The position numbers were made by a program, and so were the translations under genes. Shown one piece after another: positions 7,425-26,837 of a stretch of DNA of 64,000 bases (position 1 is its first letter; every line of letters starts with the position of its first letter). This DNA is from an uncultured Bacteroidota bacterium. GTDB taxonomy: Bacteria; Bacteroidota; Bacteroidia; Bacteroidales; CG2-30-32-10. A model generated the notes under the pieces. That model had not been told where the DNA came from and searched no databases. It worked only from the letters and a program-made list of their open reading frames with translations. The DNA is taken from NCBI GenBank assembly GCA_963831005.1, contig CAWHOW010000027.1:45002-109001 (forward strand), written 5' to 3'.

Positions 7425-7497
7425 GATTTGGTAGCTCAGCAGGTAGAGCACATCCCTTTTAAGGATGGGGTCCTGGGTTCGAATCCCAGCCAGATCA
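7425..7497 (+). tRNA. tRNA-Lys (anticodon UUU)
   Basis: Hand-folded cloverleaf: acceptor GATTTGG/CCAGATC, D arm GCTCAGCAGGTAGAGC, anticodon stem CATCC/GGATG with loop CTTTTAA, T arm CTGGGTTCGAATCCCAG, discriminator A. No encoded CCA. Confidence 0.9.
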
Positions 7498-10135: not shown

Positions 10136-10136
10136 A

Positions 10137-10904
10137 ATGAAGTTGAACTTAAAAAACAAAACTATGATGAATGAACAAGTTGTAAAAAGAATGAAAGAAA
10201 TGAAGCTCTACGGTATGCTCCGTTCCTTTGAGACCAGCCTGGAATCGGATGCTATGAACACCCTTACAAAGGATGAAATGATTGCTCAATTAATAGAAGA
10301 AGAGTGGGATGACCGATGTTGCAGGAAGATTGCACGTAATATGCAAAACGCAAAGTTCCACTACACCGCATCTATTGAACAGATGTACTTTGAAACAGAC
10401 CGTGGCATTGACAAGAACCAGGTGATGCGTCTTGCGGAATGCACATTTATTAAAAATAAAGAAAACGTAATGATTACTGGCAGTACCGGTATTGGGAAAA
10501 GTTATCTTGCGTCAGCTATTGGTCAACAGGCTTGTACTTTAGGATATAAAGTATTATATCATAATGCAACCAAGCTTTTTGCTAAACTTAAAATGGCTAA
10601 AGCCGACGGATCTTATATTAATGAAATTGCAAAACTTGAACGGCAACAGTTGCTTATTCTTGATGATTTTGGGATACAGCCCATCGATGCTCAAAGCCGT
10701 TCTGCATTCATGGAGATCATAGAAGACAGACACGAGAAGGCATCTACATTGATTACTTCACAGGTTCCGGTTGCGAAGTGGTATGAAGTTATCGGAGAAA
10801 AAACAATAGCTGATGCTATTATGGACAGGATAATCCACAATGCTCACAGATTGGAGCTCTCAGGAGATTCTTTACGTAAGAAACTAAAGAAAAAAATGGA
10901 TTAA
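10137..10904 (+). CDS. istB: IS21 helper ATPase IstB
   Basis: Walker A GSTGIGKSYLASA and Walker B LLILDDFG. The ATG lies 2 nt after the istA stop. The ORF-track start at 10056 overlaps istA and is probably not used. Confidence 0.9.
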   Translation: MKLNLKNKTMMNEQVVKRMKEMKLYGMLRSFETSLESDAMNTLTKDEMIAQLIEEEWDDRCCRKIARNMQNAKFHYTASIEQMYFETDRGIDKNQVMRLAECTFIKNKENVMITGSTGIGKSYLASAIGQQACTLGYKVLYHNATKLFAKLKMAKADGSYINEIAKLERQQLLILDDFGIQPIDAQSRSAFMEIIEDRHEKASTLITSQVPVAKWYEVIGEKTIADAIMDRIIHNAHRLELSGDSLRKKLKKKMD

Positions 10905-13033: not shown

Positions 13034-16000
13034 TTAACAACGTCTGTCGCACCTCAAACATCTCATGGATTCAGCTATTGCATTTATCTTATGATAACCC
13101 AGAGAAACTTCCTGGAAATTATTTTTCCTTTTGTCAGGAGCAAGAAATTTTGCATTGAATCTTTCGTGTTCAATAACTTCAGATTCTTCTTTAGGCATAG
13201 GAATTTCTATTGGATGAGTTATCTGGAGTTTTCCTGAACCGCCAAGAAATTTATCAATAGATTTGGCAGCCCTCTTACCGTCGGCAATGGCAGTAATTAC
13301 AATATCGGAGCCACGCGCCACATCGCCACCTGCAAAAATTCCACGCACTGAGGTCATTTGTGTTTTCTTGTCTACTATAAAGGTATTCCAGTCAGTAAGC
13401 TCAATTTCTTCTTTTTTCACAAATGAAAGATCCGTTTCCTGACTTACGGCAAGAATAACCATATCTGCATTCACCAGATATTCTGAACCCTTTATTACTT
13501 TCGGTTTTTTACGGGCTGCAATATCGTATTCCCCAAGTTTCATTTTAACAAGCTCAATGGATTTTACTTTATCACCCTCTCTAATAAAACGAACCGGGGC
13601 ACATAGTGTATGAATTTTCGCACCTTCTGCAATAGCATCATCAATTTCGTACCGATCAGCAGGCATATCTTCAATTTCGCGCCGATAATAAATATGTACT
13701 TCATCGGCTCCTTTTCTGAGTGCCGTGCGAGCCGCATCAATAGCAGTATTCCCGCCGCCAATAACTGCAACTACACCGTTTATGGTAATATCCTTGCCCA
13801 GATTGACATCTTTCAGGAAATTCAAACCCTTATAAACACCCTTCAGGCTTTCACCTTCAATGCCCATGTTTTTTGAAAGTTGTGTTCCTGTTGAAATATA
13901 TACTGAATCGAATTTCGCTTTTATTTCATCTACGGAAATATCACGTCCAATTTTTTTATTGAATTCGATTTTAACACCAACATTCAAAATAGTATCAATT
14001 TCCTTTTTAAGAATTTCTTTAGGAAGACGATATTGAGGAATACCAAAAGCAAGAACACCACCTGCAACATCTTGTTCTTCATAAACGGTTACATCATAAC
14101 CAAGTCGTGCAAGGTAATATCCGCAGGTTAGTCCTGACGGGCCTGCACCAATGATCCCTATCTTTTTATTTCTTCTTGGCAGTACAAATTCATGGAAAGC
14201 TTCACTGGAATTCATCACACTGTCAGCAACAAAGCGTTTCAATTCCATTATAGACAACGGATCATCCAACTGAGCTCTGCGGCATTTAGCTTCGCATGGA
14301 TGAGTGCAAACACGTCCGCAAACAGATGGAAAAGGATTCTCCTGTCGTATCAACCTATACGCATCCTCAACTCTTCCTGCTGATATAAGGGAAAGATAAC
14401 CGGGAATATTTACATTGGCAGGACATGCATTTTCGCAGGGAGAAATAAATAATGCCTGGCATATCCCTGCTCTGCAATACTTATCATTGATATGCTCCTC
14501 ATATTCATGACGGAAATATTTAATAGTACTTAGCACCGGGTTTGCTACAGTCTGTCCCAGTCCGCATAAGGCTGAATCTTTTATGGATTCACCCAGCTCG
14601 ATCAATAATTCGATATCTCCTTTACGACCTTCGCCTTTTGTGATCCGTTCGAGTATTTCCAGCATACGCTTTGTTCCAACACGGCAGGGTACACATTTGC
14701 CGCATGATTCTTCCTGGACAAATTCCATGAAGTATCTTGCCACATCTACCATGCAAGTGTCTTCATCCATAATGACCATTCCGCCTGAACCCATTATCGC
14801 CCCGTGTTCTTTAAGCGAATCGTAATCAACTGCTACATTCAGATGTGCGGGTGTTAAGCATCCTCCTGAAGGTCCACCTGTTTGCGCCACTTTGAATTTT
14901 TTACCATTCGGTACGCCATGGCCAATACCAAAAATTATATCGCCAAGCGAAATACCCATTGGCACTTCAATTAACCCCGTATTTTTAATATCTCCTGCCA
15001 GTGCAAATACTTTAGTCCCTTTGCTTTTTTCAGTGCCTATTTTTGCATAATTATCACCTCCATGCAACATAATATGTTGAATGTTTCCAAATGTCTCTAC
15101 ATTATTGATTACTGTTGGTTTACCTTTCAGTCCTTCTTTTGCAGGAAATGGTGGTTTCTGAACAGGTTCACCGCGTTTACCTTCCACTGATGCGATCAAA
15201 GCGGTTTCTTCACCGCAAACAAAAGCTCCTGCTCCAATTCGTATATCGATATCAAAGTCAAGGTCAGAGCCCAGGATGTTTTTGCCAAGTATTCCGTATT
15301 CTCTTGCTTTGTCAATGGCTAAGGTCAATCGTTCTACGGCAATTTGATATTCAGCACGTACGTATACTACACCTTTTGTAGCGCCAATTGCATAACCAGC
15401 CGTAATCATTCCTTCCAGAACCAGATGTGGGTTTCCTTCAATAATACTTCTATCCATGAATGCTCCGGGATCACCTTCATCTGCATTGCAGATAATAAAT
15501 TTTTGATCGCTGTCATTTTTTCGTGTAAGCTCCCACTTCAATCCTGTAGGAAATCCACCGCCGCCTCTCCCCCTTAGCCCGGATTTTTTAATTTCATTGA
15601 TCACTGCATCAGGGTCCATAGTAAGGGCTTTTGCAAGTCCCCTATATCCGTCATCAGCTATAAACTCTTCAATATCGGCATAGTCAATAACACCACAGTT
15701 CTTCAATACAATTTTCTCTTGCCGTTTAAAAAATTCGATGTCATTTACCAAAGGAATAATTTCACCGGAATCAATGTCTTTATAACAGTATTCCTTTTGG
15801 ATCGTTCCTTCAACCAAATGTTTTTTTACAATATCAGCAACATTTGAACTTTTAAGTTTACAATAGAAAACTCCTTCGGGCTGAACAATCAGGGATGGTC
15901 CTAAAGCACATGCACCCCGGCATCCAGTTGTAATCAAGCGGACTTTCGAAGTAAAATTGTTTTTTTCCAATTCGGCAATCAAGGCATCTCTAACGTCAAG

Positions 16001-16162
16001 ACATTTCGATGACATACAACCTGTTCCAGCGCATAGTTGGAGAGTGTATTGAACAGATTCAATTTTTTTAGCAAAGCTCTTTTTAATTGAATCAAGATCT
16101 TTAATATTTTTAATCTTTGCTGTCATATAATCCTTCCCTTTAGCATTAATGATATTTGGCAA
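13034..16162 (-). CDS. hydB: HydB-like NuoF-family flavoprotein fused to a GltD-like FAD/NAD(P)H oxidoreductase module
   Basis: Three parts. N-terminal thioredoxin-like 2Fe-2S domain (CAGTGC...TTGCRGACALGP). NuoF core (GRGGGGFPTG, GAFVCGEETAL, ESCGKCVPCRVG). Then a GltD-type 4Fe-4S region (SPCENACP...CGRVCTHPCEAKC), an FAD fold (IGIIGAGPSGLTCGYYLARLGYDVTVYE), a second dinucleotide fold (VAVIGGGNTAIDAART) and GGDVARG. The ORF-track start is non-ATG; ATG at about 16126 (MTAKIK) is the likely start. Confidence 0.85.
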   Translation of the reverse strand: MPNIINAKGKDYMTAKIKNIKDLDSIKKSFAKKIESVQYTLQLCAGTGCMSSKCLDVRDALIAELEKNNFTSKVRLITTGCRGACALGPSLIVQPEGVFYCKLKSSNVADIVKKHLVEGTIQKEYCYKDIDSGEIIPLVNDIEFFKRQEKIVLKNCGVIDYADIEEFIADDGYRGLAKALTMDPDAVINEIKKSGLRGRGGGGFPTGLKWELTRKNDSDQKFIICNADEGDPGAFMDRSIIEGNPHLVLEGMITAGYAIGATKGVVYVRAEYQIAVERLTLAIDKAREYGILGKNILGSDLDFDIDIRIGAGAFVCGEETALIASVEGKRGEPVQKPPFPAKEGLKGKPTVINNVETFGNIQHIMLHGGDNYAKIGTEKSKGTKVFALAGDIKNTGLIEVPMGISLGDIIFGIGHGVPNGKKFKVAQTGGPSGGCLTPAHLNVAVDYDSLKEHGAIMGSGGMVIMDEDTCMVDVARYFMEFVQEESCGKCVPCRVGTKRMLEILERITKGEGRKGDIELLIELGESIKDSALCGLGQTVANPVLSTIKYFRHEYEEHINDKYCRAGICQALFISPCENACPANVNIPGYLSLISAGRVEDAYRLIRQENPFPSVCGRVCTHPCEAKCRRAQLDDPLSIMELKRFVADSVMNSSEAFHEFVLPRRNKKIGIIGAGPSGLTCGYYLARLGYDVTVYEEQDVAGGVLAFGIPQYRLPKEILKKEIDTILNVGVKIEFNKKIGRDISVDEIKAKFDSVYISTGTQLSKNMGIEGESLKGVYKGLNFLKDVNLGKDITINGVVAVIGGGNTAIDAARTALRKGADEVHIYYRREIEDMPADRYEIDDAIAEGAKIHTLCAPVRFIREGDKVKSIELVKMKLGEYDIAARKKPKVIKGSEYLVNADMVILAVSQETDLSFVKKEEIELTDWNTFIVDKKTQMTSVRGIFAGGDVARGSDIVITAIADGKRAAKSIDKFLGGSGKLQITHPIEIPMPKEESEVIEHERFNAKFLAPDKRKNNFQEVSLGYHKINAIAESMRCLRCDRRC

Positions 16163-16646
16163 TTATTTCATTTAATTTATTCGGATTTACTTGTTTTAAT
16201 ACCTCTCCATCTATAGTTATAGCAGGAGCAAGTCCGCATGCTCCTATACAACGGGCCACTGTTAAGCTGAATTTCCTGTCTTCAGTAGTTTCGCCTATTT
16301 GTATATTTAAAACATCTTTTATTTTTTCAAGAATTTTCTTTCCGCCTCTCACATAGCACGCTGTTCCCAGGCAGACCTGAATGGTATGTTCGCCTTTAGG
16401 CTGTGTTGAAAAGAAGGAATAGAAACTGACTACTCCTGTAATTTTTGATAAAGGAATTCTCATCTCTTTTGAAATGTGTTTTAATACGTGGATTGGCAAA
16501 TATCCCCAGACCGATTGCGTGATATGGAGAATCTGAATCAGATTATTCTCATTTCTTTGGAAATCCTCAATGATTTGATCCAGGTGTTTTAGTTTTTCTT
16601 CTTCAGTTAGATTTGCGCAGTTGCACAATTTTTCAATTGCATTCAT
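16146..16646 (-). CDS. hydC: HydC, NuoE-like thioredoxin-fold [2Fe-2S] subunit
   Basis: CLGTACYVRGG ... ARCIGACGLAP cysteine pattern of the NuoE/HydC family. Overlaps hydF by 4 nt. Confidence 0.85.
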   Translation of the reverse strand: MNAIEKLCNCANLTEEEKLKHLDQIIEDFQRNENNLIQILHITQSVWGYLPIHVLKHISKEMRIPLSKITGVVSFYSFFSTQPKGEHTIQVCLGTACYVRGGKKILEKIKDVLNIQIGETTEDRKFSLTVARCIGACGLAPAITIDGEVLKQVNPNKLNEIIAKYH

Positions 16647-17863
16647 GATATAAGTTGATTAGTATGTTTAAATATTTTGGTTGTCCTTTCAAATATTCCA
16701 TTTACAAAGGCAATAGCCATTCCATAGTTAGTGACCGGTACATTCGCGTTGATTGCAGGTTGCAACCTGTTCATCACTTGCTTGCGAGTAAACATACAGC
16801 CACCACATTGAATAACCAGCGCATAGTTTTCAATTTCACACATTGGTTTATTATTTCCGGAAACAAATTCGAATTCCAATTCTTTATTTGTAAAAGCCTT
16901 CAACCATTTTGGTAATTTGAAGCGTCCTATATCATCACAGTTTACACGATGCGTACAACTTTCCATGATCAGAATTTTGCTTCCGTTTTTTAATTTGGAA
17001 ATTGCAGAAGTGCCATCTAAGTATGCTTCAAAATTGCCTTTTAGCTGAGCAAACAATATGCTGAAACTTGTAAGCGGTATTTCATAAGGAACTATTTTTG
17101 CTACATAATTAAACGCCTGACTATCTGTAACCACACAGCTTAGAACAATATGCGAAGTTTTGAAAAAATATTCAAGTTCCGTTTCTTTTAAGGTAATGCA
17201 AATACAATCATTATCCAATACATCTCGTAATGCCATTACCTGTGGAAGTATCATCCTGCCTTCGGGAGCTTCAGCATCTATGGGCGTTACCAGAAGAACA
17301 TAATCTTTTGGTTTTATCAGATCAAGAAAAAGTGATGATTTTGAATAGGATGTTTCCGGAATAATTCTTTTTACGTTTTCAATGATTTCTTCTGTGTTTA
17401 AAGAAAATAGCGAGCTAAAGTCGATAACTGTCGCATTTGTAATTTTCTTAACTTGACCTATGGTTTCAGATGATAATTTACCAAGATCACTTTTATTATG
17501 AATAATAAAAAATGGAATATCGAATTCATTGAACTTGGTAATCAAATTTATTTCATAATCATCGAATGTATTTTCGCTGATGATCAGTATCGCAGCGTCA
17601 ATGATTTTAATAACCTCAACAGTCTTTGTAATTCTTTTTTCTCCCAGAGCCCCTGAATCATCAATGCCGGCAGTATCAATTATGACAACAGGGCCAACAC
17701 CAAATATCTCAATTGATTTCTTCACAGGATCTGTTGTGGTTCCGGCTTGCTCCGATACAATAGCAATTTCCTGATTGGTAATTATATTGATAAATGAACT
17801 CTTTCCGGTATTTCTTTTACCAAAAATTCCTAAATGTGGTTTTAAATCCCTGCCTTTATTCAT
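16643..17863 (-). CDS. hydF: [FeFe]-hydrogenase maturation GTPase HydF
   Basis: N-terminal GTPase (GKRNTGKSSFIN, DTAG, NKSD) and C-terminal cluster cysteines (ESCTHRVNCDD, QCGGCM). Confidence 0.85.
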   Translation of the reverse strand: MNKGRDLKPHLGIFGKRNTGKSSFINIITNQEIAIVSEQAGTTTDPVKKSIEIFGVGPVVIIDTAGIDDSGALGEKRITKTVEVIKIIDAAILIISENTFDDYEINLITKFNEFDIPFFIIHNKSDLGKLSSETIGQVKKITNATVIDFSSLFSLNTEEIIENVKRIIPETSYSKSSLFLDLIKPKDYVLLVTPIDAEAPEGRMILPQVMALRDVLDNDCICITLKETELEYFFKTSHIVLSCVVTDSQAFNYVAKIVPYEIPLTSFSILFAQLKGNFEAYLDGTSAISKLKNGSKILIMESCTHRVNCDDIGRFKLPKWLKAFTNKELEFEFVSGNNKPMCEIENYALVIQCGGCMFTRKQVMNRLQPAINANVPVTNYGMAIAFVNGIFERTTKIFKHTNQLIS

Positions 17864-17865
17864 AT

Positions 17866-19308
17866 CTAAAAAAATAAATCACGTTTACCATTCCTAATTA
17901 AATCAAGATTTTCATGTAATTTATCTGTATTTGTTTTTTTGTTCTCCAACTCTGAAATGGATTCCTGTATTAATTCATTTCCCATTTTTCTTGTTTCTAC
18001 GTCGGCATAATCTTCAAGAAATTCAGCTAGAGTCAGTATTGAGTTGGGGGTACAAAATCTGTTTATAAACCCCGGGACAGAGTATTCCATAAAATGCTCA
18101 CCTGTCCTGCCAGCACGGTAGCAGGCAGTGCAGAAGGAGGGCATATATTTATCTGAAATCAGTTCCTTAACTACTTCATTTAAGCTCCGGGTGTCGCTCA
18201 AACTGAATTGTTCTTTTTTTAGATCCTGATTAAAACAGGTCTTTATAACTTTATCATTACTGTACCCATTTATTTCGATGTTACTTCCTGCATCTATTTG
18301 GGAACAACCAAATTCTAATACTTCGTCTCTGACCTGTTCGGACTCTCTTGCTGTTAATATTAATCCTGTGTATGGAACAGCTAAGCGAAGAATAGCGACT
18401 AGTTTGGAAAAGTCTTCATCACTGACAAACTCATCGGGAAGAATTTCCGCACCCTCAGCCTTTTGAATACGCGGAAAAGAAATAGTGTGAGGCCCCACAT
18501 TGTAGCATGCTTCCAGGTGATTGACATGCCTAATCAGTGCAAGTAAATCGAATTTCCAATCGGCTAATCCAAACAGCACGCCCAATCCTACATCATCAAT
18601 TCCCGCTTCCATTGCCCTGTCTAGAGCTGTTAACCGAAAAATGTAATTTGATTTATGACCCGATGGATGATATTTTTTATACACTTCTTTGTGATAAGTT
18701 TCCTGAAATATCTGGTAAGTACCAATTCCGGCATCTTTGATTGTTTTAAAACCTTCGATGTCGAATGGTGCTGCATTTATATTTACTCTTCTGATCTCGC
18801 CCCTGTCCTTTTTTACCTTATATATTTTCCTGACACAATCAGCAATGAACTCCGGAGAATAATCCGGATGCTCCCCAAAGACTGCAATTACCCTTTTGTG
18901 ACCAGCATCTTCAAGAACTTTGACATTATCAATTAGTTCATCTGTGGATAATGTTTTTCTTACAGCTTCTTTATTCGAAACCCGGAAACCACAGTATTTG
19001 CAATCATTCTGACATTTGTTGCCAATATACAATGGAGCGAACAGAACTATTCTGTTGCCATATATCCTTTGTTTCAGAATACGTGCATTATTTTTTATTT
19101 CATCAATTAATTCAGGCTGGTCAGTATTGATGAGGCAGGCAACATCTTCTATATTAAGACGTGTATTGTTAAGTGATTTATTAATTATGTTCCGTACTTT
19201 TTTCTTTGTAGAAACAGAATTTTTCAGATAATCCAGAATTTCCTCTTCATTAATGAAAGGATTCATGGGTTCATCTTTAATGCTATATTTTTGTGGAGAG
19301 AAATTCAT
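17866..19308 (-). CDS. hydG: [FeFe]-hydrogenase radical SAM maturase HydG
   Basis: CQNDCKYCGF (Cx3Cx2C) radical SAM motif, ThiH-like core, and a C-terminal CTACYRAGRTGEHF auxiliary-cluster motif. Confidence 0.9.
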   Translation of the reverse strand: MNFSPQKYSIKDEPMNPFINEEEILDYLKNSVSTKKKVRNIINKSLNNTRLNIEDVACLINTDQPELIDEIKNNARILKQRIYGNRIVLFAPLYIGNKCQNDCKYCGFRVSNKEAVRKTLSTDELIDNVKVLEDAGHKRVIAVFGEHPDYSPEFIADCVRKIYKVKKDRGEIRRVNINAAPFDIEGFKTIKDAGIGTYQIFQETYHKEVYKKYHPSGHKSNYIFRLTALDRAMEAGIDDVGLGVLFGLADWKFDLLALIRHVNHLEACYNVGPHTISFPRIQKAEGAEILPDEFVSDEDFSKLVAILRLAVPYTGLILTARESEQVRDEVLEFGCSQIDAGSNIEINGYSNDKVIKTCFNQDLKKEQFSLSDTRSLNEVVKELISDKYMPSFCTACYRAGRTGEHFMEYSVPGFINRFCTPNSILTLAEFLEDYADVETRKMGNELIQESISELENKKTNTDKLHENLDLIRNGKRDLFF

Positions 19309-19313
19309 TTTTC

Positions 19314-20432
19314 TTATTTTGGAATCGTTATTGTGAAAATGCTTCCTTTGCCCGGTGTACTTGACACATCAATTTTACCATTATAGAGATCGATGATCTT
19401 TTTAGCAATGGATAAACCCAATCCAGTTCCAACTATACTTCTGGTTTTTATATTTTTTATTCTTACAAAATCCTGGAAAAGTTTTGCAATATCTTCCATG
19501 CTCATTCCAATTCCGGTATCTTCAATGGTCACTATAGCATTTCTTCCGGCATCCTTTATTGAAATGTTTACATAACCTTCTTCCATATTGTATTTGATCG
19601 CGTTTGAGATAAGGTTATTAAAAACAATTTCAATTTCCTGTCTGTCAGCTGAAATAAACAGATGCTCCGGTGAATCAATATAAATTTTGACTTTTTTTTG
19701 ATCAGCCAAAGGTTCTTGTGTATCTCTTGAAAATTTAAGAATCTCGGTTAGATCGACTTCGGAAATTTCACGGGCTTTTTCGCCTGATTCAATTTTAGTG
19801 AGATTAAGCAGATCGTTTATAAGATGGCGCATCCCCTGCAATCTTACCAGAGAACGATCAATAACTCCCAGGTAATCATCAACATTGTTCCCTGCTTCCT
19901 TATCACGCATCATTTTTATATATCCTTCAACGGAATCTATAGGCGACTTTAATTCGTGTGATAAAACAGATAAGAACTGGAATTTGATTTGTTTATCTTC
20001 TTCATTCATCTGCTTGGTCATGCGCTTGAGATAAAGATGCTTTGTTATATTCTCAATGGCTGATTTCAGTTCTTCCGGAGTAAATGGTTTTGGTACAAAA
20101 TTGTAAGCCCCGTTTCGTGTAGATTTGACTGCCAGTTCAAGTGATGCATAACTGGTGATAATCGTAACAGAAATATCGTACTTGTTTTTATTAATGTATT
20201 CCAACACTTCCACCCCTTCAATTCCGGGAAGTTTATTGTCTAATAAGACGATATCAATACTCTGGCTGTTTATTATTTCTATTGCTTCTTCTCCTGTTGA
20301 AGCTTCAATAATTTCAAAGTAAAAGTCTTCTTCCATGAAGGGAAATCCGACACTGTAGGATTTGAGTATGCGTTTTATTCCTGAACGAATACCCGGTTCA
20401 TCATCTACAACCAATAATTTGAGCATTATCAT
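19314..20432 (-). CDS. Receiver-domain/histidine-kinase hybrid (REC-HisKA-HATPase)
   Basis: N-terminal REC (LVVDDEPGIR ... IVLLDNKLPG ... KPF) followed by the H-box SHELKSPI and N/G1/G2 boxes (NAIKY, DTGIGM, GTGLGLSI). Confidence 0.85.
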   Translation of the reverse strand: MIMLKLLVVDDEPGIRSGIKRILKSYSVGFPFMEEDFYFEIIEASTGEEAIEIINSQSIDIVLLDNKLPGIEGVEVLEYINKNKYDISVTIITSYASLELAVKSTRNGAYNFVPKPFTPEELKSAIENITKHLYLKRMTKQMNEEDKQIKFQFLSVLSHELKSPIDSVEGYIKMMRDKEAGNNVDDYLGVIDRSLVRLQGMRHLINDLLNLTKIESGEKAREISEVDLTEILKFSRDTQEPLADQKKVKIYIDSPEHLFISADRQEIEIVFNNLISNAIKYNMEEGYVNISIKDAGRNAIVTIEDTGIGMSMEDIAKLFQDFVRIKNIKTRSIVGTGLGLSIAKKIIDLYNGKIDVSSTPGKGSIFTITIPK

Positions 20433-20441
20433 ATGAGCTAC

Positions 20442-22421
20442 TTATTTAAGTGGTAATATTATTTTAAACTTCGTTCCTGTTCTCCCTTTAGTCGCGTCAT
20501 CATTTGAGTCAACTGATATTTTCCCTTTATGCATTTTAATAATGCCATATGTTGTAGATAGTCCCAGCCCTGTTCCTTTGCCGTGAGTCTTGGTAGTAAA
20601 GAATGGAGTAAAAATCTTATCCATATTTGTTTTTGATATTCCTGTGCCTGTATCCGAAATTTCAATTACCACCGAGTCAAATTCCTTATAATATGCGTTA
20701 ATATTTAGTTCTCCTCCGTTAGGCATTACTTCAATAGCATTTTTAGCAAGATTTGAAATAACCTGAACCATTTGTTCTTTATCGCATTTTATAAGGTCTA
20801 ATTTCGAATCAACATTTTTCAAAACTTTAATATTATCCTGAATAATAAGTGAATTCAGACTTGCATTAATAAGGTCATCGAAACTGATCAATACCTTTTT
20901 TAATTGATTGTTCCTCGCAAAATTCAATAACCCACTGACGATGGTTTTGCATCGTGCTGCCTGCTCAACAACAAGCTCCAGATCTTCTCTCATCTGGGAA
21001 TTCTTTTGGCAATCTTCGAGTAAAATATTGCTGTACATGATGATCACTCCCAGAGGATTATTAAGTTCATGGGCAATACCTGCCGATAATTGTCCCATGT
21101 GTGCAAGCTTTTCGGATTGGGTCAATGCTTTCTGCATATTTGAAAGCTTTTCATTTGAAACTGCAAGTTCTTTAATATAATTGTGCAATTTGTCAATGGT
21201 AAATGGTAAGCACATTTCATCCTCAGCTAACCCATTTGAAATTGCTATGGCGTGTTCATTGCAAGTATCGTAACCACAGCTTCCACAGTCAAGATGATCT
21301 TCTTTTGTTAATTTTCCCATCTTTTTCAGGATGATCTCAATCTCATCCTGAGATGTAGATGACATCCTATGGTCGTTACTATTAAATTGCTGACTCAAAT
21401 CGAGTGAAATATATTCTTCAATTTCCTGATTCCATCTGGCATAATCCAGGTTAGATAATTTATTATTTACATAATTCTTGATGCTTTTTCTTTTATTTAA
21501 GGCATTACCGGCAATTGACATACCGGCTCCCATAACGCATCCTTCACAGCATAGCAATTCCAAATGATGAGTATGAGATAAATCGTTTTCAAATTCCCTA
21601 ATAGCTTCGGGAAAATTACTTTTGCCGTCTGATACAATAATATTCCCTTCAACAATGCTGTCATCTATGCCAACAGTTTGAAGCAAACCCCTGCTTAACG
21701 GGAATATAGCTCCTTTGCCGCCTAACGGAAAATCGAATTCTGAAATATCAACTTTTCTATTCTTGATTTCAAAGAGCAGAAACAATTCTCTCAGTTCTTT
21801 AAAGGTAAGTGCTGCATCGATTTCGGTTGATTCGTCCTTCTTGGCTATACAAGGTCCTATAAAAACCACTTTAGTGTCAGAACCATATTTTTTACGTACT
21901 ACTCTTGCAGTGGCAACCATTGGAGATACATGCGGAGCAAGATAGCAGACCAACTCAGGATAGTATTTCTCTATGTAGGAAACTATAGCAGGACAGTCGG
22001 ATGAAATGTAATGCGATGAAGACTCGTTAAAAAGCTCTTTATATTTCTCGGCAATTAGATCAGCTCCAAAGGAAACTTCATGTACCCATGTAAAACCAAT
22101 AGATCTAAGTGTCCCCACAAATTGCTTATAATCTGCATAATCCTTGAATTCTGCCGGAAAGCTTGGAGCAACACATGCTGAAACATTTTTATTTTGGTTC
22201 AGTAATTTATAAACACTCTGTACTGAGCTTTGGAATGTTTTGGCATTCTGACGGCAGACCTTAATGCAATTCCCGCATCGGATGCATCTTTCATCAATAA
22301 CCTCTGCCTGGCCATCGGCAATCTTAATTGCTTTTGCCGGACATTCTTTTACACATGTATAACAAATCTTACACCGTTCTTTTATCGTCGATACCAATGA
22401 TATAATAGTGCTCCCTAACAT
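20442..22421 (-). CDS. HydS-type (putative sensory) [FeFe]-hydrogenase domain fused to a histidine kinase
   Basis: Two 4Fe-4S ferredoxin motifs. H-domain variants SSDCPAIV, GPCIAKKDE and ELLCCEGCVMGAG. An exact Cx2Cx4Cx16C motif (C379, C382, C387, C404). Then a coiled coil, H-box AHELNNPL and HATPase (NAIEV, DTGTGI, GTGLGLS). Confidence 0.8.
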   Translation of the reverse strand: MLGSTIISLVSTIKERCKICYTCVKECPAKAIKIADGQAEVIDERCIRCGNCIKVCRQNAKTFQSSVQSVYKLLNQNKNVSACVAPSFPAEFKDYADYKQFVGTLRSIGFTWVHEVSFGADLIAEKYKELFNESSSHYISSDCPAIVSYIEKYYPELVCYLAPHVSPMVATARVVRKKYGSDTKVVFIGPCIAKKDESTEIDAALTFKELRELFLLFEIKNRKVDISEFDFPLGGKGAIFPLSRGLLQTVGIDDSIVEGNIIVSDGKSNFPEAIREFENDLSHTHHLELLCCEGCVMGAGMSIAGNALNKRKSIKNYVNNKLSNLDYARWNQEIEEYISLDLSQQFNSNDHRMSSTSQDEIEIILKKMGKLTKEDHLDCGSCGYDTCNEHAIAISNGLAEDEMCLPFTIDKLHNYIKELAVSNEKLSNMQKALTQSEKLAHMGQLSAGIAHELNNPLGVIIMYSNILLEDCQKNSQMREDLELVVEQAARCKTIVSGLLNFARNNQLKKVLISFDDLINASLNSLIIQDNIKVLKNVDSKLDLIKCDKEQMVQVISNLAKNAIEVMPNGGELNINAYYKEFDSVVIEISDTGTGISKTNMDKIFTPFFTTKTHGKGTGLGLSTTYGIIKMHKGKISVDSNDDATKGRTGTKFKIILPLK

Positions 22422-22480: not shown

Positions 22481-23452
22481 TTAACAATTTTTCAATGTTC
22501 TTTTTTCAATTATCCGTTCAAGCTCAGGTAAGAATCTATTTATGTCGAATGGTTTTGCAATGAAACCATCAACAGGGAACCATATGGTTTTCCCTTCTTC
22601 CGACAAATAATCAATACCTGTATTTCCTGTAGCGATATCCTTAACCAATAAAACATTTAAATCCTTATAACTGTCTTTTTTTCTAAACTCCCGTGCCATG
22701 TCCTGAACGTACGGGCTTGATGTGTACAGTACCTCAATAGAAGTTTGCATGAGTATTGGAATTTTATTTAGCACAGGATCATCTGTAATGGCTTTAGCCA
22801 TTTCAAAACCTTCGTAATGAGTGGCCATCATTACATCAAGAATAGCAATGTCAGGCAGTTCTTCCTTAATTTTTAGAAGCCCTTCTTCCTTGCTATAAGC
22901 GGTGACAACGTTAAATCCCTTCTTCGAGAGAATTGTTTTCATAACAATGAGCACATCTTCGTCATCATCAACTATTAAAATTTTGGTTGTTTTCATGTAA
23001 TTGAATTTTTTGTTATTAATAATTTCATTAAAATGTATGGGGAAATATAATCTTCCGTCAATAACTGAATTAACGGCACGCTCTATGTCTTTTCTGTCAG
23101 CATTTTTAGGTAAAAAATAGTTTACTCCGGTTGAAATAATTTTAATCAGGTAATCAGCATCGTTAAACATGGTAAGTGCAACGATTTTTGTTTTTGGGAA
23201 AAGTTTTAATATGATTTTTGCTGCCTCAACACCATCAAGGTCCTGCATCTCCAGATCAAGGAAAAAGATATCAACCCGATTATTCTTTAGAAAGGGTAAT
23301 AGTTCCCTGCCATTTGATAATTCCCCAATGACATTTACATTTTCCATTCTTAACAAAACTGTCTTTAATGCTTTGCGAAACAAATGGTGAGAATCGGCTA
23401 TGAGAATATTTTTTTTTGAACCTTCCATTATGCAGAAAATGTAACACGGCAA
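22481..23452 (-). CDS. Tandem-receiver protein (REC-REC, no output domain); likely start at ATG 23428
   Basis: The first REC is NarL-like (ILIADSHH ... FFLDLEMQDLDG ... LPK). The second REC reads ILIVDDDEDVLIV ... AILDVMM ... KPF. No HTH or enzymatic domain is visible. Confidence 0.75.
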   Translation of the reverse strand: MPCYIFCIMEGSKKNILIADSHHLFRKALKTVLLRMENVNVIGELSNGRELLPFLKNNRVDIFFLDLEMQDLDGVEAAKIILKLFPKTKIVALTMFNDADYLIKIISTGVNYFLPKNADRKDIERAVNSVIDGRLYFPIHFNEIINNKKFNYMKTTKILIVDDDEDVLIVMKTILSKKGFNVVTAYSKEEGLLKIKEELPDIAILDVMMATHYEGFEMAKAITDDPVLNKIPILMQTSIEVLYTSSPYVQDMAREFRKKDSYKDLNVLLVKDIATGNTGIDYLSEEGKTIWFPVDGFIAKPFDINRFLPELERIIEKRTLKNC

Positions 23453-23585: not shown

Positions 23586-24242
23586 CTAAAAGTCAACCAA
23601 CTTGTTTTTAATAACATAAGCTAAAAGCTGAACAGTGCTTTTACAATTTGTTTTTGATAGAAGATTCGATTTGTGTCCGATAACAGTTCTCTCACTAATA
23701 AATAAAGTATCAGCAATATCTTTATTACTATATCCTTCCAATATGAGTTTAATAATCTCAACTTCGCGCTTGGTAAGGACCAATCCACTTGTATTACCTG
23801 GTTTTTCTTCGCGTATGAATTTTTGAGTAAAGTAATTCCATAATTCTTCAGAGTAATAATTATTCCCTTTCATCACGGTTTCAATGGCTCTTTCTAAATC
23901 TTCCGAATTAATATTTTTCAATAAAAATCCTTTCGCTCCGGCCTCAAGCATGCTTTCAAGGTATTCTTTATTATTAAACATGGTAAGGGCAACAATTTTC
24001 AAATCAGGAAATTTGGCAATGGCATTCTTTGTGGCTTCAACACCATTCATAACCGGCATTTCAATATCAAGCAGGACAATATCAGGTGTAACAGTATCTA
24101 ATGCAGAAAGAAAATCCCTGCCATTAGAAGCTTCTGCAATAACCCTTGTATTCTTGATTTTATTAATAACAGTCTTTAAACCACTACGGAAGATCTCGTG
24201 GTCATCCACTATCATTATGGTAATTTTATCAATCATAAGCAT
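23586..24242 (-). CDS. NarL/FixJ-type response regulator (REC + LuxR HTH)
   Basis: IMIVDDHEIFRSG ... VLLDIEMPVMNG receiver plus a C-terminal LTKREVEIIKLILEGYSNKDIADTLFISERTVIGHKSNLL HTH. Confidence 0.9.
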   Translation of the reverse strand: MLMIDKITIMIVDDHEIFRSGLKTVINKIKNTRVIAEASNGRDFLSALDTVTPDIVLLDIEMPVMNGVEATKNAIAKFPDLKIVALTMFNNKEYLESMLEAGAKGFLLKNINSEDLERAIETVMKGNNYYSEELWNYFTQKFIREEKPGNTSGLVLTKREVEIIKLILEGYSNKDIADTLFISERTVIGHKSNLLSKTNCKSTVQLLAYVIKNKLVDF

Positions 24243-24412: not shown

Positions 24413-25708
24413 TCATTTCAATTTTGCTTCAATAACCATTGTAAATCCTCTATCAGGGTTTCTTGTAAAAGAGTATTGACCATTTATCGAAATTACCCTG
24501 CTTATAATATTTTTCAGCCCGGTACCGGATTGTTTGCTTTTTAAAATTTCATCTATGTCAAATCCGATACCATCGTCAGTATATTTTAACAACAAATCCG
24601 TATCGGATCTGTTTATTACTAAAACTATACTTGGGGCTTCAGCATGCTTTATAGTATTGTTGATTAATTCTTCTGTAATTCTAAATAAGGCAAGCTCTAT
24701 TTTTGAATCAAGACGAACTGTATCAATATTCGACTTGAAATTTAATTTTATTTTACCTGTCAGATTAATCTGATTGCATAGTGAATCGATCGCTTTCGCT
24801 AAACCGTAATCTTTGATCAGTATAGGAACTAGGTTATTAGAGATATCGCGGATATTAAGCATGGCTTCATCAATAATTTCGTTGATATTTTTAATAAAAG
24901 AAAGTTTATCATCCTTTGCAAGATCATCTTCCTTCAGAATATTCACATAAAGTTTTATGGTCGATAGAAGCGGGCCAATGCCATCGTGCATTTCTTTTGC
25001 AAACCGCTTTCGTTCCCGTTCTTCTGTTTCGATCGACGCACTAAGAATCTTTCTTTCAAATTTAAATCGTTCTGAAATATCATGGGCTATGGTCAATATT
25101 GCTGTGCGGTCTTCATAATCGATAGTCCTGCTAATCATTTCCAAATAGAGAATTTTATTATCTTTTGTGATATGTTCTGTATCGTAGGTATGCCTTCCGT
25201 TTTTTACAATCAGATCAATATTGTATTTTACCTGATCAATATATTTTGGAGTTTTTATTTTCCTTATGTTCGTATTGATAAGTTCTTCTTTGGAGTATCC
25301 AAGTTGCTTACAAACTTCCAGGTTTGATTCTATGATATTCCCATCAAGATCCAGCAAGAAAATCCCATCCGTTGAATCATTAAATAATGTTCTAAACTTT
25401 TCTTCTGATTCTTTTAATATAACTTCTGATTTCTTCAGTTCTTTTAATACTTTCCCAATGGTAATAACTCCCACAAGAATAAGTGTAGAAATTATTATAT
25501 CTATAAAATAATAATATCCGTTATGAATATTCCCATTTAATGCAAAATCAGCCAGATCAACAACTCGATTAAATGATATAAGGAAAAAAGCAATTGCAAT
25601 AAGTATCCAGGATGTACGCGAACGCGCTATACTTAGTAACTGCAGCGTTTTAAGAACAGTAATGAGCTGGATTAAAATGGAAATTGAAAGAAGTATATAA
25701 ATATACAT
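24413..25708 (-). CDS. Membrane sensor histidine kinase (TM-PAS-HisKA_3-HATPase, NarX/DegS class)
   Basis: Three N-terminal TM helices, a PAS-like segment (FRTLFNDSTDGIFLLDLDGNIIESN), the H-box EMHDGIGPLLS and a C-terminal ATPase (DDGIGF, GTGLKNI). Confidence 0.85.
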   Translation of the reverse strand: MYIYILLSISILIQLITVLKTLQLLSIARSRTSWILIAIAFFLISFNRVVDLADFALNGNIHNGYYYFIDIIISTLILVGVITIGKVLKELKKSEVILKESEEKFRTLFNDSTDGIFLLDLDGNIIESNLEVCKQLGYSKEELINTNIRKIKTPKYIDQVKYNIDLIVKNGRHTYDTEHITKDNKILYLEMISRTIDYEDRTAILTIAHDISERFKFERKILSASIETEERERKRFAKEMHDGIGPLLSTIKLYVNILKEDDLAKDDKLSFIKNINEIIDEAMLNIRDISNNLVPILIKDYGLAKAIDSLCNQINLTGKIKLNFKSNIDTVRLDSKIELALFRITEELINNTIKHAEAPSIVLVINRSDTDLLLKYTDDGIGFDIDEILKSKQSGTGLKNIISRVISINGQYSFTRNPDRGFTMVIEAKLK

Positions 25709-25719
25709 AAACGTCCCGG

Positions 25720-26802
25720 TTAATTATTTTGACCTTTAAAGTGCTTTGAATCGCCCCATTTCCCATATCCTATTGAATTATTTATAGATTTTATTCTTAA
25801 TTCAGTACATGGCAAACAATGAGATGCATCCTCAGTAGTACATGGCTTGCCTTCGTATAATTCATATAAATTGCGATATTTGACAGGAGAAATATTTGGC
25901 ATTATAATATTGGCACCAGCTTTTATAGCTGCTTCTCTTCCATCTGGAACAATTGCCTGCATGGCTGTGGTTGCTGCAATATTAATATTTTTCATTAATA
26001 TTCTTAATATAGCTATCATTTTTAACGTTAATTCAAAGCGGGCAATTTTCGGCATTAAATTCTCTTTATATACATACAATGGTGTATCCTGATGTTCCAC
26101 ATATGGACCCATTCCACACATATCAATATCTAAATCCTTCATAAAGATTAAATCATCGGCCAAATCTTCCATTGTTTGAAAAGGCATTCCTATCATAACC
26201 CCTGTTCCAACCTGAAAACCTATCTTTTTTAAAAGGTGCAAACAATTTAACCTGTAATCATAATCATGGTTTTTATCAGCAGGATGCAATTTAGCATACA
26301 ACTCACGATTTGATGCTTCAATGCGAAGCAAATAACGATGTGCACCTGCTATAAACCATCTTGAATATGTTTCTTCGGATTGTTCGCCAAGTGAAAGCGT
26401 TATACCGAGTTCGTTGTTGGTTTGCTTTTTAATATTCCTCAATAAGCATTCAATTCTATCAACAAACGTATCTTTCATCAATTCACCGGATTGAATCACG
26501 ATGGAGCCATAATTACTTTTATAAGCAAAATCGGCGCATTGCATTACTTCATCATCAGAAAGATTATATCTCTTAGTGTTTTTGTTACTAATCCTTATAC
26601 CGCAATATAAACAGTCCTTTCTGCAAATATTCGATAATTCAATTAACCCTCGAAGATGAACAATATTACCTATATGTTTTTCTTTTATTCTCGCGGATTC
26701 ATGAAACAATTTTTGTTTATCATCACCTTCAAGTTGTAATAAAATAATCAGATCTTCTTTTGAAAATGTTTTTTTTGCTAGGATTTCATCAACTAAACTC
26801 AT
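25720..26802 (-). CDS. hydE: [FeFe]-hydrogenase radical SAM maturase HydE
   Basis: BioB-like radical SAM protein with CRKDCLYCGIR. The ORF track extends to 26832 through a non-ATG codon; ATG at 26802 (MSLVDEIL) is more plausible. Confidence 0.85.
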   Translation of the reverse strand: MSLVDEILAKKTFSKEDLIILLQLEGDDKQKLFHESARIKEKHIGNIVHLRGLIELSNICRKDCLYCGIRISNKNTKRYNLSDDEVMQCADFAYKSNYGSIVIQSGELMKDTFVDRIECLLRNIKKQTNNELGITLSLGEQSEETYSRWFIAGAHRYLLRIEASNRELYAKLHPADKNHDYDYRLNCLHLLKKIGFQVGTGVMIGMPFQTMEDLADDLIFMKDLDIDMCGMGPYVEHQDTPLYVYKENLMPKIARFELTLKMIAILRILMKNINIAATTAMQAIVPDGREAAIKAGANIIMPNISPVKYRNLYELYEGKPCTTEDASHCLPCTELRIKSINNSIGYGKWGDSKHFKGQNN

Positions 26803-26829
26803 TCTAAAGGGGCTTTTCAAGAATAAATG

Positions 26830-26837
26830 CAAAGTTA
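26830..26837 (-). promoter_or_regulatory. Candidate -7 promoter box (TAACTTTG on the minus strand) for the hydE-led transcript
   Basis: Matches the Bacteroidota TAnnTTTG consensus about 28 nt upstream of the 26802 ATG. Confidence 0.35.

Follow-up and report, generated by a model that had tools for sequence, protein, structure and literature searches.

The window, by which I mean the whole 64,000-nucleotide stretch of DNA that was analysed, carries on its minus strand a gene, here called hydS-HK, that encodes a sensory [FeFe]-hydrogenase module and a histidine kinase in one polypeptide, and that lies among genes for further signalling proteins, for H-cluster maturases and for the hydrogenase subunits HydA, HydB and HydC. 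The reading frame and its parts are the following:

20442..22421, minus strand: hydS-HK, sensory [FeFe]-hydrogenase/histidine kinase fusion, whole open reading frame with stop, 659 aa (ORF list and Pfam)
22242..22385, minus strand: N-terminal 2x[4Fe-4S] ferredoxin domain, residues 13-60 (C17/20/23/27 and C46/49/52/56; Fer4_10 and Fer4 matches)
21525..22190, minus strand: H-domain, residues 78-299 (PF02906, Fe_hyd_lg_C, E 5e-44, full profile)
nt 21990-22004, minus strand: H-domain motif L1, SSDCP (from CpI equivalences)
nt 21831-21857, minus strand: H-domain motif L2, GPCIAKKDE (from CpI equivalences)
nt 21537-21560, minus strand: H-domain motif L3, ELLCCEGC (from CpI equivalences)
21210..21287, minus strand: C-terminal Cx2Cx4Cx16C [4Fe-4S] motif, C379, C382, C387 and C404 (regular expression and PF04060)
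21072..21209, minus strand: leucine-zipper signalling helix from the cluster domain to the phospho-His, residues 405-450 (a/d hydrophobic pattern, spacing and AF2)
20907..21098, minus strand: HisKA/DHp domain, residues 442-505 (PF00512, E 1e-13)
21069-21071, minus strand: codon of the phospho-acceptor H451, within AHELNNPL
20448..20783, minus strand: HATPase_c domain with N, G1, F and G2 boxes, residues 547-658 (PF02518, E 7e-23)

The Pfam matches, which include every domain that the first-pass annotation had expected (Fe_hyd_lg_C, Fer4, HisKA and HATPase_c), lie far beyond chance: Fe_hyd_lg_C scores 151 bits against a cut-off of 22.1 and is covered over profile positions 1-245 of 245, Fer4_10, Fer4 and Fer4_9 (4Fe-4S type) match residues 13-60, and PF04060 ('FeS') matches residues 377-406. 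Both ferredoxin motifs, CKICYTCVKECP (residues 17-28) and CIRCGNCIKVCR (residues 46-57), are present where two CxxCxxCxxxCP motifs had been read, but the second ends in CR and not in CP. The remaining motifs occupy residues 140-144 (SSDCP), 189-197 (GPCIAKKDE), 288-295 (ELLCCEGC) and 450-457 (AHELNNPL); the claimed Cx2Cx4Cx16C motif was recovered exactly by regular expression, and the proposed order of a coiled coil, an H-box with H451 and an HATPase domain agrees with Pfam and with the a/d pattern. An H-box His together with N, G1, F and G2 boxes makes this a class I (HisKA) kinase, and the top PDB sequence matches of its core are ZraS (9jfj) and a FixL chimera (4gcz), with CckA matching as well. 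Downstream of the C-terminal cluster Pfam gave no PAS match, with E values up to 0.01 admitted, and this sets hydS-HK apart from the TmHydS-type architecture, not from subgroup C1.

Residue equivalences to CpI were taken from HMMER alignments to PDB chains, and these give D142 for C299, C143 for C300, I146 for W303, G189 for M353, C191 for C355, K194 for K358, L290 for M497, C292 for C499 and C295 for C503, with A85-P86-S87, S166-P167 and F240 standing for the pocket residues A230-P231-S232, S323-P324 and F417. The earlier reading of an Asp at the relay Cys position, of Gly and Leu at the two conserved Met positions and of no Trp after L1 survives this comparison, as do three of its four cluster cysteines (C143, C191 and C295). 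The fourth, C291, does not: it corresponds to CpI A498 in an L3 that lacks one residue relative to group A (C-x-G-C versus C-x-x-G-C), and since position 292 aligns to C499 and is Cys in 72 of 72 kinase-fused relatives, while position 291 varies (usually C, A or F, now and then M), the L3 ligands of the H-cluster are C292 and C295. In A1, a 26-sequence Bacteroidota alignment, all eight ferredoxin Cys, the C-terminal cluster Cys and the H-cluster ligands and pocket residues are invariant, F240 being conserved at ≥90%; the invariant positions include D142, C143, G189, P190, C191, K194, E197, E288-C292, G294 and C295, and in the kinase AHELNNPL, N557, N561, D590, G592, G594, F604, F607, G614, G616, G618 and G620. 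Beyond A1, the Cx2Cx4Cx16C motif is found in 79 of 80 family sequences and the four H-cluster ligand Cys are kept in kinase-fused relatives of other phyla. Judged by these alignments the H-cluster site is complete, with four ligand Cys and its pocket residues, and is predicted to bind the cofactor, a prediction supported by TamHydS, with Leu at M497, and TmHydS, with Gly at M353, which both bind a functional H-cluster.

An ordinary group A or B enzyme, an outcome that the first-pass annotation had named as refuting its reading, was rejected on curated cut-offs and on active-site replacements: hydS-HK reaches 97 bits where group A (NCBIfam TIGR02512) requires 406 and 183 bits where monomeric B1 (NCBIfam TIGR04105) requires 450, and in place of the group A signature (TSCCPxW, M353, M497 and the proton pathway) it has D142, I146, G189, L290, K126 and A162. 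What it does share are the features of group C, namely an N-terminal 2x[4Fe-4S] domain with a C-terminal Cx2Cx4Cx16C motif (definition in PMC8163306), the loss of the relay Cys and of the group A proton pathway, and a group A hydrogenase encoded nearby (hydC, hydB and hydA on the same strand and in the same cluster), the PAS domain being the one group C feature that is lacking; the spectrum of residues at position 299 in sensory enzymes is given in PMC10055695. The kinase-linked subclass that the first-pass annotation had described as proposed from sequence classification is [FeFe] group C1 of HydDB, named in 2016 'Histidine kinase-linked (putative)' with a proposed role in H2 sensing (PMC5037454). 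By its sequence hydS-HK fits this C1 group, whose link to a histidine kinase, be it physical or genetic, is here present as HisKA and HATPase_c in the same polypeptide; its homology, over the full length, to Hydrogenedentota proteins of the type described as C1 with HATPase_c lends the assignment indirect support. Group C itself was reportedly first defined by Greening et al. in the ISME J in 2016.

The fusion is common and widespread, and nothing about it is specific to the window. At least 120 homologues were listed, 118 of them near full length, at 56-88% identity, with the nearest database relative given as 71%, and the names of the homologue clusters are generic ('histidine kinase', '[Fe-Fe] hydrogenase large subunit C-terminal domain-containing protein'). 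Matches to hydS-HK were obtained in 597 species genomes, many of which carry the same fusion, as do about 70 of the best 80; these best 80 are the loci compared throughout. MAGs with full-length fusions bear labels of over a dozen lineages at phylum or class level, and the gene nearly always adjoins hydABC, a receiver-kinase gene and hydEFG. As the first-pass annotation had supposed, the searched literature yielded no biochemical experiment on any kinase-fused member, nor a paper joining H-cluster, autophosphorylation and hydrogenase, and the reviews name TmHydS and TamHydS as the only characterised proteins, with evidence from genetics or from transcripts for RaHydS and TsHfsB.

Around hydS-HK lie the following genes:

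19314..20432, minus strand: REC-HisKA-HATPase receiver-kinase, 9 nt downstream of hydS-HK, with D10, D11 and D65 (Pfam)
22481..23452, minus strand: REC-REC protein without output domain, two Response_reg stretches, 59 nt upstream of hydS-HK
23586..24242, minus strand: REC-GerE (LuxR/NarL-type) response regulator (Pfam)
24413..25708, minus strand: PAS-HisKA_3-HATPase kinase (Pfam)
25720..26832, minus strand: hydE, H-cluster radical SAM maturase (TIGR03956, 358 bits, equivalog-level cut-off 255)
17866..19308, minus strand: hydG, H-cluster radical SAM maturase (TIGR03955, 507 bits, equivalog-level cut-off 312)
16643..17863, minus strand: hydF, H-cluster maturation GTPase (TIGR03918, 475 bits, equivalog-level cut-off 326)
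16146..16646, minus strand: hydC, NuoE-like 2Fe-2S subunit (PF01257, E 7e-49)
13034..16162, minus strand: hydB fused to a GltD/NfnB-like NAD(P)-binding module, 1042 aa (Pfam, NuoF and gltD-family matches: Complex1_51K, NADH_4Fe-4S, Fer4_20 and Pyr_redox_2)
11236..13014, minus strand: hydA, catalytic group A [FeFe]-hydrogenase (NF040763, 868 bits, cut-off 765)

From hydS-HK to hydA the genes are tightly packed on one strand, with gaps of ≤19 nt or overlaps, and hydA, which matches NF040763 ('NADH-dependent [FeFe] hydrogenase, group A6') and carries the motifs TSCSPGW, MPCTAKK and MGCPGGC, is the likely regulated target of the sensor. Its TSCSPGW motif was considered as an anomaly and dismissed, being present in 31 of 62 neighbouring HydA genes, in the solved A. 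woodii HydA (7q4v) and in published work (PMC3787301); a Cys at CpI-321 that might compensate for it did not covary strictly with the motif. The neighbourhood of hydC-hydB-hydA, hydS-HK, REC, REC-HK and hydG-F-E recurs in MAGs of over a dozen lineages labelled at phylum or class level, and in about 65 of the 80 loci, across phyla, a homologue of the receiver-kinase follows the sensor directly or after a small receiver gene, which makes the receiver-kinase at 19314..20432 the probable phosphotransfer partner of hydS-HK. That small stand-alone receiver, encoded after the sensor in 61 of the 80 loci, is absent from the window, where the gene order is rearranged relative to the related loci and where the only match to it is the second REC of the REC-REC protein (35% over 76 aa). 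The LuxR-type regulator has the only DNA-binding output domain of the cluster; it sits in the same cluster in five Bacteroidota loci (L004, L005, L010, L018 and L068), adjoined in all of these save L018 by the PAS-HisKA_3 kinase, its expected partner by family, and among the 80 related loci no DNA-binding regulator was found that is conserved with the module across phyla. A scan for sigma-70 promoters and terminators returned 79 sites where 65 were expected, in a phylum, the Bacteroidota, that uses other promoter types.

Between the hydrogenase and the kinase there is a zipper helix, continuous from C404 into the DHp helix that bears H451, with 47 residues from one to the other and hydrophobic a/d positions at 409/412/416/419/426/433/440, of which L412, L419, L426 and L433 are ≥94% conserved across phyla. 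The phospho-His follows the last cluster Cys at one of three distances only, 47 aa (54 loci), 40 aa (17 loci) or 54 aa (one locus), values that step by exactly one heptad. As a pattern of sequence spacing, such heptad steps argue that a coiled coil couples the C-terminal cluster domain rigidly to the kinase. Published linker-length work on the LOV-FixL chimera YF1 is said to have found the same kind of heptad-step changes. A monomeric AF2 model built from 26 sequences places helices at 409-441 and then 447-470, with a mean pLDDT of 68, a pTM of 0.50 and, as a monomer, values below 50 in the coiled coil. Foldseek with hydS-HK returned the expected kinase and hydrogenase folds alone, and this structure search brought up no HydS-type structure in the PDB.

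Taken together, the domains, the residue equivalences and the neighbourhood fit the original reading of a HydS-type module fused to a histidine kinase, and hydS-HK is probably a hydrogen-sensing switch for the neighbouring hydrogenase genes. The form of this reading that I favour, with rather better than even confidence, is that of a soluble, probably homodimeric C1-type sensor kinase that passes an H2 signal to H451 and from there to hydrogenase expression. HydEFG from the same cluster would install the [2Fe] subsite; H2 would be split at the H-cluster, with Asp142 replacing the relay Cys as proton acceptor; and the module of H-domain and C-terminal cluster, through its redox state or its conformation, would twist or piston the coiled coil, switching H451 autophosphorylation on or off. 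The phosphate would then move to the receiver domain (D65) of the adjacent REC-kinase, in most relatives maybe also to, or through, the small stand-alone receiver, and the receiver-kinase would set an output that adapts hydABC and hydEFG expression to the H2 present in the surroundings; for the final DNA-binding step the cluster offers a single candidate, the LuxR-type regulator at 23586..24242.

The Asp in this scheme had been singled out as a specific feature of the protein, and it is one within the window's Bacteroidota clade, where alone D142 is invariant; as a family-wide trait it was rejected, S, T, N, A, P, K or Y taking its place elsewhere. Of the replacements reported for C299, Asp alone leaves group A enzymes active (PMC10055695; PMC9563086), with 10-58% of H2-evolution activity kept in such variants (PMC9563086). 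Like hydS-HK, the CpI C299D, CaI C298D and CrHydA1 C169D variants place an Asp beside the adt amine, and it is because the SDCP motif matches that 6glz/8pvm is the top-scoring CpI chain against hydS-HK, 6glz being the crystallised C299D variant (PDB title 'variant C299D'). Those engineered Asp residues sit in catalytic group A scaffolds with the remaining proton pathway intact, whereas the Asp of hydS-HK is natural, clade-invariant and set in a scaffold without E279, S319 and R286: E279 is replaced by K126 (a variable position), S319 by A162, R286 is deleted, and E282 alone is kept, as E129. With the rest of the canonical pathway absent the role of Asp142 is uncertain, and the clade-invariant residue offers a natural counterpart of the engineered C299D variants.

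The missing proton pathway is also one of the points in favour of an explanation that I consider unlikely, in which hydS-HK would be a redox, ferredoxin-pool, O2 or CO sensor whose kinase reads Fe-S oxidation or integrity, H2 not being the primary signal; the clusters would exchange electrons with ferredoxin via the N-terminal 2x[4Fe-4S] domain, and the H-domain would be a relic or CO/O2-responsive. Four Fe-S sites, including a surface-type ferredoxin domain, would suit such a role, and Fe-S clusters are established sensors of O2, NO and redox state (PMC13104023). Moreover, the C-terminal cluster of TamHydS is not reduced by H2, a result that its authors regard as challenging earlier signal-transduction hypotheses and as questioning the role of that cluster (PMC13104023). 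Other points that speak against the favoured H2-sensing scheme are a study of Hydrogenedentota that hardly found P1-P3 signatures in C1 proteins and left H2 sensing open (PMC11406978), the lack of a DNA-binding regulator conserved with the module across phyla, the stand-alone receiver missing from the window and the moderate quality of the AF2 model. Against a plain Fe-S redox sensor stands the strict conservation of the [2Fe] site, which it would not need, the ligating and lining residues being invariant in A1 and the ligand Cys kept in other phyla; nor would a ferredoxin-pool sensor need a proton-competent Asp conserved at 299, and hydS-HK is inherited with hydEFG and hydABC in most loci.

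It is quite improbable that hydS-HK is a working hydrogenase that turns over H2 at rates relevant to metabolism, either by itself or as an additional subunit docked to HydABC, with a kinase that reports flux or is secondary. The activity kept with an Asp at the relay (PMC9563086), the N-terminal electron-transfer domain and the direct adjacency to hydABC in most loci would agree with this, as would the treatment of group C3 proteins as the 'T subunit' of Bfu/Hyd complexes (PMC11406978), but M353, M497, E279, S319 and R286 are all replaced or absent, the scores fall far under the curated group A and B cut-offs, TmHydS and TamHydS show low activity and irreversible electrochemistry (PMC8163306; PMC13104023; PMC10055695), and a coiled coil quantised in heptads, together with a complete kinase, points to a protein selected for signalling. 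I regard as very improbable a pseudo-hydrogenase whose H-domain carries its [4Fe-4S] cluster at most and provides an unrelated signal with a scaffold for input or dimerisation, since the Leu at the M497 position and the shortened L3 that might suggest it are set against a spectroscopically normal H-cluster in TamHydS, which has the same Leu (PMC8163306), strictly conserved ligand and pocket residues, and maturase genes in the same cluster.

If hydS-HK is indeed a C1-type H2 sensor kinase, it bears on whether group C [FeFe]-hydrogenases sense H2 and on how the signal leaves the H-domain; TmHydS and TamHydS have no built-in output, and the kinase fusion offers a direct readout, phosphorylation under H2 versus inert gas, and the heptad-quantised linker offers a simple structural hypothesis. 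Hydrogenase expression in fermentative Bacteroidota, and in many anaerobes besides, is probably set by C1 sensors, which would thereby matter for the flux of H2 in sediments, digesters and guts. A bolder proposal, tentative and in my judgement somewhat short of an even chance, is a conserved relay from HydS-HK through the small receiver to the receiver-kinase that has accompanied hydABC/hydEFG through over a dozen lineages of phylum or class level, turning H2 turnover into a mechanical signal via the [4Fe-4S] domain and the heptad-step coiled coil, with a natural Asp handling protons in the Bacteroidota clade and with the relay shortened in the window's lineage by loss of the small receiver; if true, no [FeFe] H2 sensor would have had its signal path defined before. 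The C1 class itself has been known since 2016, and what is new here is the clade-limited Asp, the 40/47/54 spacing and the small receiver missing from the window.

Among known systems the closest is HydDB C1, which likewise links an H-domain to a histidine kinase with H2 sensing proposed (PMC5037454), and from which no difference in kind was found; an identity of only 71% to the nearest database relative, the clade Asp at the relay, the rearranged gene order and the lack of a stand-alone receiver are what distinguish hydS-HK. In another member of the Bacteroidales, Petrimonas mucosa, the C1 gene ING2E5A_0849 lies near a multi-subunit bifurcating hydrogenase operon (PMC7768429), and C1 proteins of Hydrogenedentota contain HATPase_c and often have group A3 genes as neighbours (PMC11406978), the Hydrogenedentota loci L023 and L076 encoding full-length relatives 47-48% identical to hydS-HK. 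TmHydS shares the N-terminal 2x[4Fe-4S] domain, the absence of the relay Cys, the Gly at M353, the C-terminal Cx2Cx4Cx16C motif and the company of a group A hydrogenase (PMC8163306; PMC10055695), but it has Ala at 299, Ser at M497 and a PAS domain after the cluster with no kinase in the same chain, where hydS-HK has Asp, Leu, no PAS and a 47-residue zipper straight into a HisKA kinase. TamHydS, like hydS-HK, lacks PAS and the relay Cys, has Leu at M497 and the C-terminal Cx2Cx4Cx16C motif, and is encoded near a histidine-kinase-like ATPase gene and a bifurcating hydrogenase (PMC8163306). The kinase-like protein of T. mathranii is, however, a separate gene where that of hydS-HK is fused, and the M353 position is Ser in TamHydS and Gly in hydS-HK. 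Position 299 is Ala in TamHydS and Asp in hydS-HK; that the TamHydS residue is not Cys is given in PMC8163306.

More distant are the [NiFe] systems HoxBC-HoxJ-HoxA of Cupriavidus necator and HupUV-HupT-HupR, which follow the same logic of a low-activity hydrogenase reporting H2 to a kinase that controls hydrogenase genes (PMC5037454; PMC5665086), and whose H2-sensing enzymes belong to HydDB group 2b (PMC5037454). These are analogues and not relatives of hydS-HK, for HoxBC and HupUV have an unrelated [NiFe] site and fold, and their sensor and kinase are separate and joined via a PAS-like region. On the kinase side, FixL and YF1 (PDB 4gcz) resemble hydS-HK in the sequence and fold of the kinase core and in the parallel coiled coil that links sensor to DHp, and differ from it in the input module, which is PAS/LOV in FixL and YF1 and a hydrogenase with an Fe-S domain in hydS-HK.

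hydS-HK joins a putative sensory [FeFe]-hydrogenase to a histidine kinase, and the first-pass annotation that recognized this fusion was right in both its finding and its interpretation: its motifs were all found at the residues it had named when the translation was checked, and Pfam places the hydrogenase domain, the cluster motif, HisKA and HATPase on one polypeptide.

Architecture of hydS-HK (domains from Pfam)
20442..22421, (-) strand, hydS-HK open reading frame, 659 aa
Residues 13-60, Fer4_10, Fer4 and Fer4_9 (4Fe-4S type)
Residues 78-299, complete Fe_hyd_lg_C (E 5e-44, profile positions 1-245 of 245)
Residues 377-406, small 'FeS' domain PF04060
Residues 442-505, HisKA
Residues 547-658, HATPase_c

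Both ferredoxin motifs described as CxxCxxCxxxCP are present, but the second, CIRCGNCIKVCR, ends in CR rather than CP. The kinase core is similar to ZraS, CckA and FixL/YF1 by sequence and fold comparison; the translation shows an intact kinase and, separately, the cofactor-binding motifs. Ordinary group A or B classification, named beforehand as a refuting outcome, was looked for in NCBIfam, where hydS-HK scores far under the cut-offs (97 bits vs 406 for group A; 183 bits vs 450 for monomeric B1) and is claimed by no curated family; the database names of its relatives are generic.

Equivalences with CpI, the reference group A enzyme whose residue numbers are used here, were taken from HMMER alignments to PDB chains.

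Residues of hydS-HK and their CpI counterparts
D142, C299, relay position
C143, C300, H-cluster ligand
I146, W303
K126, E279
E129, E282, kept
Deleted, R286
A162, S319
G189, M353
C191, C355, H-cluster ligand
K194, K358
E197, E361
L290, M497
C292, C499, H-cluster ligand
C295, C503, H-cluster ligand

These alignments bear out the replacements noticed earlier, namely Asp for the relay Cys (D142), Gly and Leu at the two Met positions (G189, L290) and the Trp missing after the L1 motif (I146), and they retain three of the proposed cluster cysteines (C143, C191 and C295) but not C291. In L3, matching ELLCCE-GC to CpI EVMACHGGC takes a deletion of one residue, and position 292 is Cys in all 72 kinase-fused relatives, so C292 and C295 are the ligands in L3; C291 is ruled out, since these relatives usually have C, A or F at 291, and now and then M. 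The lining of the [2Fe] subsite is retained (A85-P86-S87, S166-P167, K194, F240), and among 26 Bacteroidota sequences P86, S87, S166, P167, K194 and D142 are invariant while A85 and F240 are at least 90% conserved.

Among the CpI chains of the PDB, 6glz/8pvm, titled 'variant C299D' by Foldseek, scores highest. Asp at 299 occurs only in the Bacteroidota clade of the window (22 loci and each of the 25 homologues aligned); other members of the fused family have S, T, N, A, P, K or Y there, and two Bacillota forms that lack a kinase have Cys. Sensory enzymes carry Ala in about 43%, Cys in 17%, Pro or Ser in about 10% each, 'etc.', and in group A Asp alone among replacements of the Cys retains activity (PMC10055695), C-to-D variants keeping 10-58% of H2 evolution, with H2 oxidation hit harder and Hox favoured under H2 (PMC9563086). 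D142 is therefore a real feature, confined to one clade and, as first proposed, testable; it has no canonical proton pathway to feed, because E279, S319 and R286 lack equivalents in hydS-HK.

The final Cx2Cx4Cx16C ligand, C404, is followed by L405-P406 and then a helix, and the distance from this Cys to the phospho-His is 47 residues in 54 loci, 40 in 17 and 54 in one, with no other values, so that the spacings differ by exact heptads. The periodicity evident in the linker sequence has hydrophobics at 409/412/416/419/426/433/440 (L412, L419, L426 and L433 at least 94% conserved) and a polar a-position at 423 (Asn in 56%); a low-confidence AF2 monomer model has helices at 409-441 and 447-470, and L3 lies a nearly fixed 84 residues from the cluster motif in 61 of 79 sequences. 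Heptad quantisation would be expected of a rigid parallel coiled coil carrying a signal from the cluster domain to the DHp bundle. The inferred course has HydEFG maturing the sensor, H2 reacting at its H-cluster, the resulting state altering kinase output via the coiled coil, phosphate passing to D65 of the neighbouring receiver-kinase, and hyd gene expression then changing. Coupling to the kinase may be conformational; the version in which an electron moves to the C-terminal cluster is weakened by counter-evidence from TamHydS, a characterised group C sensory hydrogenase.

The hyd cluster lies wholly on the (-) strand and reads, 5' to 3', hydE, a PAS-HisKA_3 kinase, a LuxR-type regulator, REC-REC, hydS-HK, the REC-HisKA-HATPase receiver-kinase, hydG, hydF, hydC, hydB (a GltD-like fusion) and hydA. 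Between hydS-HK and hydA successive genes overlap or stand at most 19 nt apart, which is compatible with a single transcript. HydE, HydG and HydF exceed their NCBIfam equivalog cut-offs, and HydA that of 'NADH-dependent [FeFe] hydrogenase, group A6'. Most of the best 80 related loci have, in this order, hydC-hydB-hydA, hydS-HK and a receiver-kinase, often followed by hydG/F/E, and synteny with hydABC, hydEFG and receiver proteins is conserved; conservation of the LuxR-type regulator and its kinase with the cluster is limited to Bacteroidota. A stand-alone receiver gene of about 130 aa lies directly 3' of hydS-HK in 61 of these 80 loci, the closest relatives (L081, L082) included. The gene is missing from the window, where only 9 nt (20433-20441) separate hydS-HK from the receiver-kinase and nothing but the second REC of the upstream REC-REC matches it, weakly (22736-22942, 35% over 76 aa).

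In HydB (13034-16162, (-), 1042 aa) a NuoF-like flavoprotein is fused to a GltD/NfnB-like NAD(P)-binding oxidoreductase, which suggests different or additional pyridine-nucleotide specificity; similar long forms adjoin hydS-HK in loci labelled Acidobacteriota (L025), Thermoleophilia (L026, L033), Planctomycetota (L041) and Armatimonadia (L066). HydA (11236-13014, (-)) reads TSCSPGW at residues 304-310, with Ser where CpI has ligand C300, as do 31 of 62 neighbouring HydA genes and the A. woodii HydA of known structure (7q4v), and the variant is also known in Melainabacteria (PMC3787301); the CpI-321 position was checked for a Cys that would strictly compensate, and none was seen. About 330 nt past hydA, two overlapping ORFs (8585-10904, (+); 516 and 282 aa) resemble in sequence an IS21-type transposase with its helper ATPase, so the cluster ends beside a probable mobile element.

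Other elements of the window
7425-7497, (+), tRNA
50166-52286, (+), and 60837-62960, (+), two Por_Secre_tail (type IX secretion sorting) proteins of ~706 aa
58457-58532, (-), group II intron domain RF00029 (Rfam)
60218-60338, (-), group II intron domain RF01999 (Rfam)

The Por_Secre_tail proteins, taken with the taxonomy of the homologues, point to a Bacteroidota origin for the window. Between the intron domains (region 58457-60338, (-)) lie two overlapping ORFs, 58520-59134, which bears a maturase GIIM domain, and 59049-59681; the intron-encoded protein may be frameshifted.

The fusion is widespread. The best 120 database matches are 56-88% identical and mostly from Bacteroidota or Bacteroidales MAGs, 118 being near full length with the same architecture (nearest full-length match 71%) and two truncated (447 and 452 aa). 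Scanning one genome for each species turned up relatives in at least 597 genomes. The fusion is found at full length in MAGs that bear the labels Bacteroidota, Ignavibacteria, Myxococcota, Planctomycetota, Hydrogenedentota, Acidobacteriota, Verrucomicrobiota, Elusimicrobia, Spirochaetota, Actinomycetes/Thermoleophilia, Deltaproteobacteria/Desulfobacteraceae, KSB1, Anaerolineae, Bdellovibrionales, Armatimonadia and Clostridia. Querying 1.84 billion cluster representatives with the junction alone (residues 286-520) yielded 80 matches at E <=1e-30, roughly 30 of them 650-730-aa proteins spanning the whole junction. Locus L082, from a Bacteroidota genome also carrying P0002, encodes a 1077-aa protein (16959-20192, (-)) with Fe_hyd_lg_C, several PAS domains and HATPase_c, a second, larger hydrogenase-kinase fusion type, adjoining a receiver and a REC-SpoIIE phosphatase (15227-16947). 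Many Bacteroidales loci also hold a further HydS-like paralogue that is shorter, shares 39-42% identity across the sensor part and is transcribed divergently from hydCBA; no such gene lies in the window.

Shorter HydS-like paralogue (strand opposite hydCBA, upstream of hydC)
L003, L009, L011, L028, L047, L062, L069 and L071, at ~3.6-5.6 kb
L007, at 0.2-1.6 kb

hydS-HK belongs to a class already catalogued, seen adjoining hnd genes in Petrimonas mucosa (PMC7768429) and, with an HATPase_c domain, adjoining group A3 genes in Hydrogenedentota (PMC11406978), and its kind is not new. What is new is the ligand correction, the finding that the Asp is confined to one clade, the linker quantised in heptads, the two conserved partners (receiver and receiver-kinase), and the small receiver's loss at the window locus. 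Kinase-fused members had been said to lack biochemical characterisation, and a literature search found no such study; the fusion offers the most direct route to test H2 sensing by [FeFe] enzymes. Compared with TmHydS, also a characterised group C enzyme, hydS-HK has no PAS domain and has its kinase built in; it resembles TamHydS in having Leu at M497 and no PAS, but has a fused kinase where TamHydS has an adjacent one, and the [NiFe] HoxBC-HoxJ-HoxA system is a functional, unrelated parallel.
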